Shown: piece by piece, positions 617 to 1,416 of the stretch
Numbering within the stretch: the first letter of the stretch is position 1
Layout: the number at the start of each line of letters is the position of its first letter
Assembly: GCF_041248615.1 (NCBI RefSeq)
Contig: NZ_CP158426.1
Length of the DNA stretch: 64,000 bases
From: Escherichia coli
Lineage (GTDB): Bacteria; Pseudomonadota; Gammaproteobacteria; Enterobacterales; Enterobacteriaceae
Direction: 5' to 3' (one strand)
Program-made: the position numbers and the translations under genes
Notes under the pieces: model-generated
The model's database searches: none
Seen by the model: the letters and a program-made list of their open reading frames with translations, nothing else
What the model was told of the DNA's origin: nothing

Positions 617-1081
617 TCAATGGGTTTCTTCTGTCTCTCGGGTGAGGGTTTCCCAGTCGGCAGGAGGATGTCCTCTTTTTAACATTTTGCTGAATACGGT
701 ATAGGCATCTGTTTTTTTACCGTAGGTGCGCAGAGTGTTTTCATCGTTCATCCATCCCAGAATGATGACTTTCTCTTTTTCACTATAACGAAAGAAGAGA
801 CGATAACGACCAGCACCAAATTTTACCCGTGACCAGTCTTTATTTTTCCCAGAGCCTAACGACTTGCCATGACGGAATGCCGGTGATGATGGATTGACCG
901 TGATATGCTCCTCAATCACTTTATGGACTACCGCCAATAACTTTGTGGCGGCTTTTCTCTGATAATTTTCAGGATCTTTTCCCTTTAATGTCTCGACTTC
1001 GGCAACTAAAGCGTCGTAGGTTTCCTGAAAACAGGGATGAGCATATAGCGCCCAACCATTAACCCTTTGTGGAAAATCCAT
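617..1081 (-). CDS. yhaV: Type II toxin YhaV (ribosome-dependent mRNA interferase)
   Basis: 154 aa ORF whose sequence I recognise as YhaV; 1-nt overlap with upstream antitoxin gene. Confidence 0.9.
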   Translation of the reverse strand: MDFPQRVNGWALYAHPCFQETYDALVAEVETLKGKDPENYQRKAATKLLAVVHKVIEEHITVNPSSPAFRHGKSLGSGKNKDWSRVKFGAGRYRLFFRYSEKEKVIILGWMNDENTLRTYGKKTDAYTVFSKMLKRGHPPADWETLTRETEETH

Positions 1082-1416
1082 TATTCGTCGTCGCCAATCT
1101 CATCATCAATGTTGACGTCCATGCCAGCGACAAGTTTCTTTCCTTGTTGAATGTTGAATGGACGAGTTTTTTGCGGGGTGTTCTGGATATCTGCATCCAG
1201 AAAACGCAAAAATGCATTCATAGTATGATCCTCCTGTTCATCTCCCAGTCGGCACATAAATACTTGCCCACCAGGCAGAATTTCGTAATGAATGCTGTCC
1301 TGGCCTGGCTTCAGTTTTAAGGCCTCACGCACTGGCGCGGGGATAGTTGTTTGTCCGCGTATCGTGACCTTTGATTCAGTGGTCAGTACAGCGTGAGAGC
1401 GAGCATTAGCGGGCAT
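1081..1416 (-). CDS. prlF: Antitoxin PrlF (SohA), AbrB/SpoVT-type
   Basis: 111 aa ORF with acidic C-terminus (DDEIGDDE), immediately upstream of and overlapping yhaV. Confidence 0.9.
   Translation of the reverse strand: MPANARSHAVLTTESKVTIRGQTTIPAPVREALKLKPGQDSIHYEILPGGQVFMCRLGDEQEDHTMNAFLRFLDADIQNTPQKTRPFNIQQGKKLVAGMDVNIDDEIGDDE

Follow-up and report, generated by a model that had tools for sequence, protein, structure and literature searches.

Between garD and agaR, the E. coli chromosome analysed here carries two adjacent genes, which an earlier note, made from the sequence, had named prlF and yhaV and had considered to form a functional toxin-antitoxin module. The locus raises the question of whether this pair is indeed intact, how it may be expressed and regulated, and what its presence at this site signifies. 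In the following, the window refers to the whole stretch of 64,000 nucleotides that was analysed, and all positions are numbered from its first letter. The genes concerned are the following.

1416..1081, minus strand: prlF (sohA), antitoxin gene, 111 aa (ORF list)
1081..617, minus strand: yhaV, toxin gene, 154 aa (ORF list)
1079..1083, minus strand: TAATG stop/start junction, the two genes sharing the base at 1081 (sequence)
up to 562, plus strand: 3' end of agaR, convergent with yhaV (ORF list)
1565..3136, minus strand: garD, which begins 148 bp past the prlF start (ORF list)
7826..8202: rnpB (Rfam RF00010)

The two genes are co-oriented, with the antitoxin first, and overlap by a single base. 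The A at 1081 is common to the TAA stop codon of prlF, as its last A, and to the ATG of yhaV, as its first A, as can be read from the minus-strand junction GACGAATAATGGAT (also given as GAATAATGG). Past garD, the gene order continues with garP, garL, garR, garK and rnpB. The order garD, prlF, yhaV, agaR is the same in MG1655 and in strain TUM14771, corresponding to an orthologous chromosomal position. The names, lengths, order and position beside the gar cluster that the earlier note had given for the pair are all correct, and the one-nucleotide overlap that it had described is confirmed. Two further open reading frames overlapping the operon, at 1069..1320 (plus strand, 83 aa) and 1059..1217 (minus strand, 52 aa), were discarded, nothing beyond their openness being in their favour.

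Alignment with the K-12 reference proteins, which the earlier note had suggested as a check, showed that YhaV is identical to b3130 over 154/154 residues and that PrlF is identical to b3129 over 110/111 residues, the sole change being N80T. Neither a frameshift nor a premature stop was found in this alignment, and both frames are full length, as had been claimed. At the DNA level, an alignment of 1,041 bp with MG1655 revealed five substitutions and no internal indels; besides the N80T change, one of them is synonymous and falls in yhaV, and the other three lie outside the coding sequences. The surrounding strain is not K-12, the closest sequences being NZ_OW967178.1 and NZ_LT599825.1 (100% identity over the cassette and the exuR-exuT island). 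The segment 560-1564 of the window is 100% identical in at least 10 RefSeq chromosomes, where PGAP annotates both prlF and yhaV. The pair is the ordinary, well-studied and already known prlF-yhaV operon of E. coli, of which Schmidt et al. (2007) is said to be the original paper. From the identity to the experimentally tested K-12 proteins, we infer that the module is almost certainly functional in the way demonstrated for K-12, keeping in mind that an intact gene pair does not in itself establish release of the toxin in vivo.

With regard to the antitoxin, PrlF matches the Pfam family PF15937 (PrlF_antitoxin) with an E-value of 2.4e-41 and 140.3 bits (cut-off 32), and the NCBIfam equivalog NF007429 with 167.9 bits (cut-off 125). 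Residues 15-39 resemble the AbrB model TIGR01439 (27.1 bits, just under the cut-off of 28.3) and MazE_antitoxin PF04014 (19.5 bits, just under the cut-off of 24.7). The C-terminal tail, GKKLVAGMDVNIDDEIGDDE, is acidic, as the earlier note had pointed out, with seven acidic and two basic residues among the last 20; PrlF and YhaV have calculated pI values of 5.1 and 9.25, respectively. The predicted layout of the protein is accordingly an N-terminal AbrB/MazE-like DNA-binding part followed by an acidic C-terminal toxin-binding part. A sequence search of the PDB with PrlF retrieved no relative. Both proteins match PHROG families, and one of these, phrog_26961 (a profile of 76 positions), covers residues 68-110 of PrlF only. 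The C-terminal third looks like the minimal toxin-binding module.

The Thr at position 80 is probably a minority allele, since the exact 61-nt stretch around prlF codon 80 is present in 136 of 5155 genomes. In four homologues of the PF15937 family, the residue aligned to position 80 is R, H, N and N. The variability of this position among homologues, together with an undamaged co-resident yhaV, suggests that N80T is neutral and that T80 would work like N80.

YhaV matches Pfam PF11663 (Toxin_YhaV) with an E-value of 7.8e-54 and 181.9 bits (cut-off 35); E-values of this order for both proteins exclude chance open reading frames. With a threshold of E<=0.001, an exhaustive profile search yielded 980 cluster representatives of the YhaV family. 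When 68 of these homologues were aligned, residues P63, R93, F95, W109, N111 and R117 proved invariant, and R84, K86 and Y126 are among the positions kept in at least 90% of the sequences; all of them are present here. Sequence similarity of YhaV to any PDB chain is not detectable, and the corresponding search returned no genuine relative. The lone match, to the designed protein ThreeFoil (E 0.0023; two 30-residue stretches with E ~7 each), was judged spurious.

An AlphaFold2 model of YhaV, built on the 68-homologue alignment, reached a pLDDT of 96 and a pTM of 0.90. When it was compared with the PDB using Foldseek, ranks 1-46 were occupied by RelE, HigB, YoeB or ParE toxins and their fold relatives, the latter including H. 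pylori HP0892/HP0894 and the RelE-domain protein Cami1. The best folds were those of PfiT (E 1.6e-4), E. coli RelE and HigB2, together with M. tuberculosis RelE1 and RelE2 and RelE on the 70S ribosome, and E. coli RelE (4fxh_B) was matched with a probability of 1.00 and a TM-score (target) of 0.71. The model thus supports a RelE/ParE-type alpha/beta fold for YhaV. It also lends independent support to published work that had put the toxin in one clade with RelE and HigB, among the mRNA endonucleases that depend on the ribosome and cut before G (PMC8546651, PMC11980606). Overexpression of YhaV, in the form of the identical K-12 protein, is toxic and rescued by the antitoxin, and is accompanied by genome-wide mRNA cleavage (PMC8546651). 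On the basis of family, fold model and literature, the yhaV product is predicted to be a ribosome-dependent mRNA endonuclease of the RelE superfamily.

The features that may govern expression of the operon are the following.

1453..1481, minus strand: sigma-70-like promoter, with -35 TTTGCA (1481..1476), a 17-nt spacer and -10 TATAAT (1458..1453); 10/12 consensus positions
1473..1488, unstranded: perfect inverted repeat TAATGCA-2 nt-TGCATTA with 7-bp arms, over the -35 (repeat scan; same in K-12)
1426..1430, minus strand: prlF Shine-Dalgarno AAGGA, 9 nt ahead of the ATG (anti-SD duplex -5.3 kcal/mol)
1145..1158, minus strand: tandem heptamer (TTCAACA)x2, prlF nt 259-272, in the wild-type in-frame state (sequence)
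1517..1542, minus strand: garD intrinsic terminator, 10-bp stem and T run (terminator and repeat scans)
570..604, unstranded: GC-rich hairpin within the 54 bp that separate yhaV from the convergent agaR (RNA fold -20 kcal/mol, z -2.1)

The -35, the -10, the inverted repeat and the heptamer copy number are those of K-12. Judging from its sequence, the promoter at 1481..1453 would drive the operon, and the garD terminator, located upstream of it, insulates it from garD transcription. As related second-hand in PMC7781912 and PMC12107188, the operon is repressed by a PrlF2-YhaV4 complex that attaches to palindromic DNA in its promoter; the repeat at 1473..1488 is a candidate operator for this complex. 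As a side observation, position 1495 is A here and C in MG1655; this substitution is located 7 bp upstream of the inverted repeat and touches neither the arms of the latter nor the -35 or -10 hexamer. The hairpin at 570..604 is possibly a terminator shared by yhaV and agaR; it has no clean U-run, and the terminator scan was silent on this segment. A promoter for yhaV only, at 1109..1080 in the 3' end of prlF (9/12), was dropped, given that the region contained three such matches against 1.4 +/- 1.2 expected by chance. Terminator-like matches within the coding sequences (1054..1038 and 1277..1265) were also taken as chance.

The start of yhaV is preceded by a weak SD-like site (anti-SD duplex -2.7 kcal/mol), and frameshifts in prlF have been reported to exert a polar effect on yhaV (PMC12107188). 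The weak site, the TAATG overlap and the reported polarity fit translational coupling, and yhaV translation is probably coupled to prlF termination. We are highly confident that the locus is the prlF-yhaV operon of the E. coli chromosome, a type II toxin-antitoxin system that is intact, occupies its customary site next to garD and agaR, is probably translationally coupled and, according to the literature, is autorepressed. Under this reading, the single promoter (1481..1453, minus strand) would give rise to a bicistronic prlF-yhaV mRNA, from which PrlF would be translated via its own Shine-Dalgarno site, while YhaV, almost devoid of one, would start at the TAATG overlap in a manner coupled to the termination of prlF. 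YhaV would then be neutralised by the C-terminal part of PrlF, and the complex, sitting on the palindromic promoter DNA via the AbrB-like N-terminus of PrlF, would keep the operon repressed. Gene integrity, identity with K-12, family membership, toxin fold, gene pairing and the presence of promoter and palindrome were established here; for the toxicity of YhaV and its neutralisation, the dependence on ribosomes, the assembly into a hexamer and the autorepression, we rely on literature that deals with an identical YhaV and a near-identical PrlF. No structure of either protein has been solved, and the PDB contains no chain related to them in sequence, so that the evidence on the toxin fold comes from a predicted structure.

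The tandem heptamer in prlF deserves particular attention with regard to integrity. A 7-bp duplication, which adds a third copy to the usual two, defines the classical prlF1 allele and recurs in laboratory evolution; the three-copy gene has a frameshifted C-terminus, the operon is derepressed, Lon activity is up and ompF expression is down, and resistance to carbenicillin, aztreonam and D-valine ensues (PMC7686311, PMC12107188, PMC6928379, PMC12323667). The presence of the wild-type two copies here is the most specific answer to the possibility of a frameshift, which the earlier note had itself raised. It is highly improbable that the module has decayed or lost its function. Nothing speaks for such decay, the lone amino-acid change being PrlF N80T, and it is opposed by the full-length frames, by a YhaV 100% identical to that of K-12, and by the wild-type state of promoter, candidate operator, Shine-Dalgarno site and hot spot. 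Furthermore, PGAP calls the identical DNA intact genes, yet flags true frameshift alleles as pseudogenes.

Of about 5150 complete E. coli genomes, at least 18 showed natural expansions of the heptamer, with 3-19 copies; most genomes have two copies, and 11 complete genomes have exactly three. Copy numbers were verified directly for strains D1 (3 copies), MEI7BO1-21 (5), FORC_042 (6), MB06234 (12), SCU-106 (14) and AREA_497 (19), and 7, 9 and 11 copies in three further genomes were deduced from match spans only. Among the verified alleles, the frame is kept only at 5 and 14 copies. Each of the remaining ones is flagged by PGAP as a pseudogene, carries a frameshift or, in the case of AREA_497, is broken up into two partial CDSs. 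Beside every verified expanded prlF allele, yhaV remains intact, with 154 aa. No report of natural copy-number variation of this heptamer was found in the searchable literature.

A second feature of prlF concerns a possible internal start. An AGGAGG motif (1235..1230, minus strand) is located 8 nt before the in-frame ATG of codon 66 (1221..1219), and its anti-SD duplex of -10.3 kcal/mol is the strongest in the operon, compared with -5.3 for the annotated prlF start. Codon 66 is hence a candidate internal start, which would yield a C-terminal PrlF peptide of 46 aa. An intragenic ribosome-profiling signal in prlF is mentioned, with no coordinate, in PMC10400941. M66 is replaced by a leucine in three of four PF15937-family homologues, and the internal start is therefore a hypothesis at the level of E. 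coli only. Short PrlF homologues consisting of the C-terminus only are observed in phages, namely, those of phrog_26961 and a 63-aa ORF at positions 2306-2497 of a related locus (L010). The TTCAACA repeat falls inside the short frame that begins at codon 66, and both features are wild type in the window. It may be speculated, although we consider it rather improbable, that prlF is more than a simple antitoxin gene, combining a short, toxin-binding PrlF of 46 aa with a TTCAACA repeat acting as a reversible switch between a repressed and a derepressed state, the latter Lon-activating and beta-lactam-tolerant.

The survey of complete E. coli genomes revealed the cassette in 5167 out of 5426 of them (95%), nearly always as a single, chromosomal copy, with one plasmid copy. 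Five YhaV homologues with 34-57% identity were traced to their contigs. In four of these distant loci, a PF15937 gene is directly upstream of yhaV, with a 4-nt overlap or a gap of 2-5 nt. The fifth locus is prophage-like and lies beside a CI-like repressor; upstream of its yhaV is an unannotated 63-aa ORF, which aligns only with the C-terminal part of PrlF. The pairing of the PrlF and YhaV genes is conserved. PADLOC has no defence-system model for PrlF or YhaV.

The cassette is absent, with both flanks kept, in about 190 complete genomes, including UTI89, S88, APEC O1 and IHE3034 (ST95-like) and the type strain ATCC 11775. In the cassette-free genomes, about 80 bp of unrelated sequence takes the place of window positions ~558-1560, agaR is 5 codons longer, and the breakpoints are a few bases from the agaR and garD stop codons. 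Moreover, ~429 genomes were noticed to harbour an additional agaR/garD junction, which is 86% identical and lacks the cassette. It belongs to an IS-rich island (L007, NZ_CP123024.1 2927454-2951675, not part of the window) that also holds an enterotoxin gene, malX and a degraded garD-like pseudogene.

Other readings of this locus concern less the integrity of the module than its role. The toxin might effectively never be released from an intact module, the main effect then being that of PrlF as a regulator, through autorepression and through the link of prlF alleles to Lon activity, envelope stress and OmpF levels. The hyperactivation of Lon, the derepression of the operon and the beta-lactam and D-valine resistance brought about by the 7-bp duplication are in line with this proposal (PMC7686311, PMC12107188), as is the fact that the trigger of YhaV is given as 'Unknown' in PMC7781912. 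The natural genomes that keep an intact yhaV by a frameshifted prlF suggest, in addition, that the toxin is tolerated without full-length PrlF. However, overexpressed YhaV is toxic in a rescuable manner and cleaves mRNA genome-wide (PMC8546651), the gene is intact, with 154 aa, in 8/8 loci examined, and the conservation of all family-invariant residues argues for purifying selection on toxin activity. A silent toxin is possible, and we are inclined to doubt it.

A further reading, which we hold unlikely, sees in the pair not a host-adapted regulator but chiefly an addiction cassette, selfish or mobile, that inserted itself between agaR and garD. The clean presence/absence polymorphism at agaR-garD and the 86%-identical remnant of this junction, also without the cassette, are what such a cassette would account for, and homologues of the pair adjoin traI on a plasmid-like contig and the CI-like repressor in the prophage-like locus; the PHROG matches of both proteins point in the same direction. 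Against it, neither repeats, nor an integrase, nor an IS element flanks the cassette in the window, and the pair occupies a single chromosomal site in 95% of genomes, with just one plasmid copy. A mobile origin would in any case be compatible with the preferred explanation of how the module works.

Other differences between strains were noticed elsewhere in the window. A 5.4-kb CS1-type (alternate chaperone-usher) fimbrial operon, at 31380-36822, lies between the two following genes.

30593..31369, minus strand: exuR
from 36838, minus strand: exuT

Its products are a 238-aa chaperone, a 166-aa major subunit, a 900-aa TcfC-like usher and a 359-aa tip adhesin of the CfaE/CblD family. The operon is missing from the comparison strain TUM14771 and is covered to at least 80% in 1902 of 5426 genomes, only five of which have it at 99% identity or more. 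At positions ~51133-51156, between ygjK and fadH, the window lacks ~1.9 kb of TUM14771 sequence, and this extra segment carries the gene of a 513-aa hypothetical protein.

As a textbook chromosomal pair, the locus has small discovery value, and the analysis is useful mainly as a quality control of annotation, since module, promoter and hot spot all turned out to be wild type. Should the side observations on prlF prove true, this gene would represent a simple test case, from which it could be learnt how an internal start codon together with a short tandem repeat adjusts a toxin-antitoxin system and, via Lon and OmpF, antibiotic tolerance.

Among known systems, the closest is K-12 b3129-b3130, which shares with the pair described here the locus between garD and agaR, equal gene lengths and an equal TAATG overlap. 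PrlF also recalls the MazE/AbrB antitoxins, through the resemblance of residues 15-39 to TIGR01439 and PF04014, with both scores just below the curated cut-offs. As in MazE/AbrB systems, the antitoxin gene is upstream of that of the toxin, and autoregulation via palindromic DNA has been described for PrlF in PMC7781912. PrlF-YhaV differs from MazE systems in that the partner toxin is RelE-like rather than MazF-like. In this respect it approaches RelBE and HigBA, since the YhaV model has the RelE/ParE fold, RelE being ~60 residues shorter than YhaV, with TM-scores of 0.45-0.49 when normalised to YhaV compared with 0.6-0.8 when normalised to the target. The antitoxins of these systems are of other types, a ribbon-helix-helix protein for RelB and a helix-turn-helix protein for HigA, whereas PrlF is predicted to be AbrB/MazE-like and, according to PMC7781912, assembles with its toxin in a PrlF2-YhaV4 stoichiometry.
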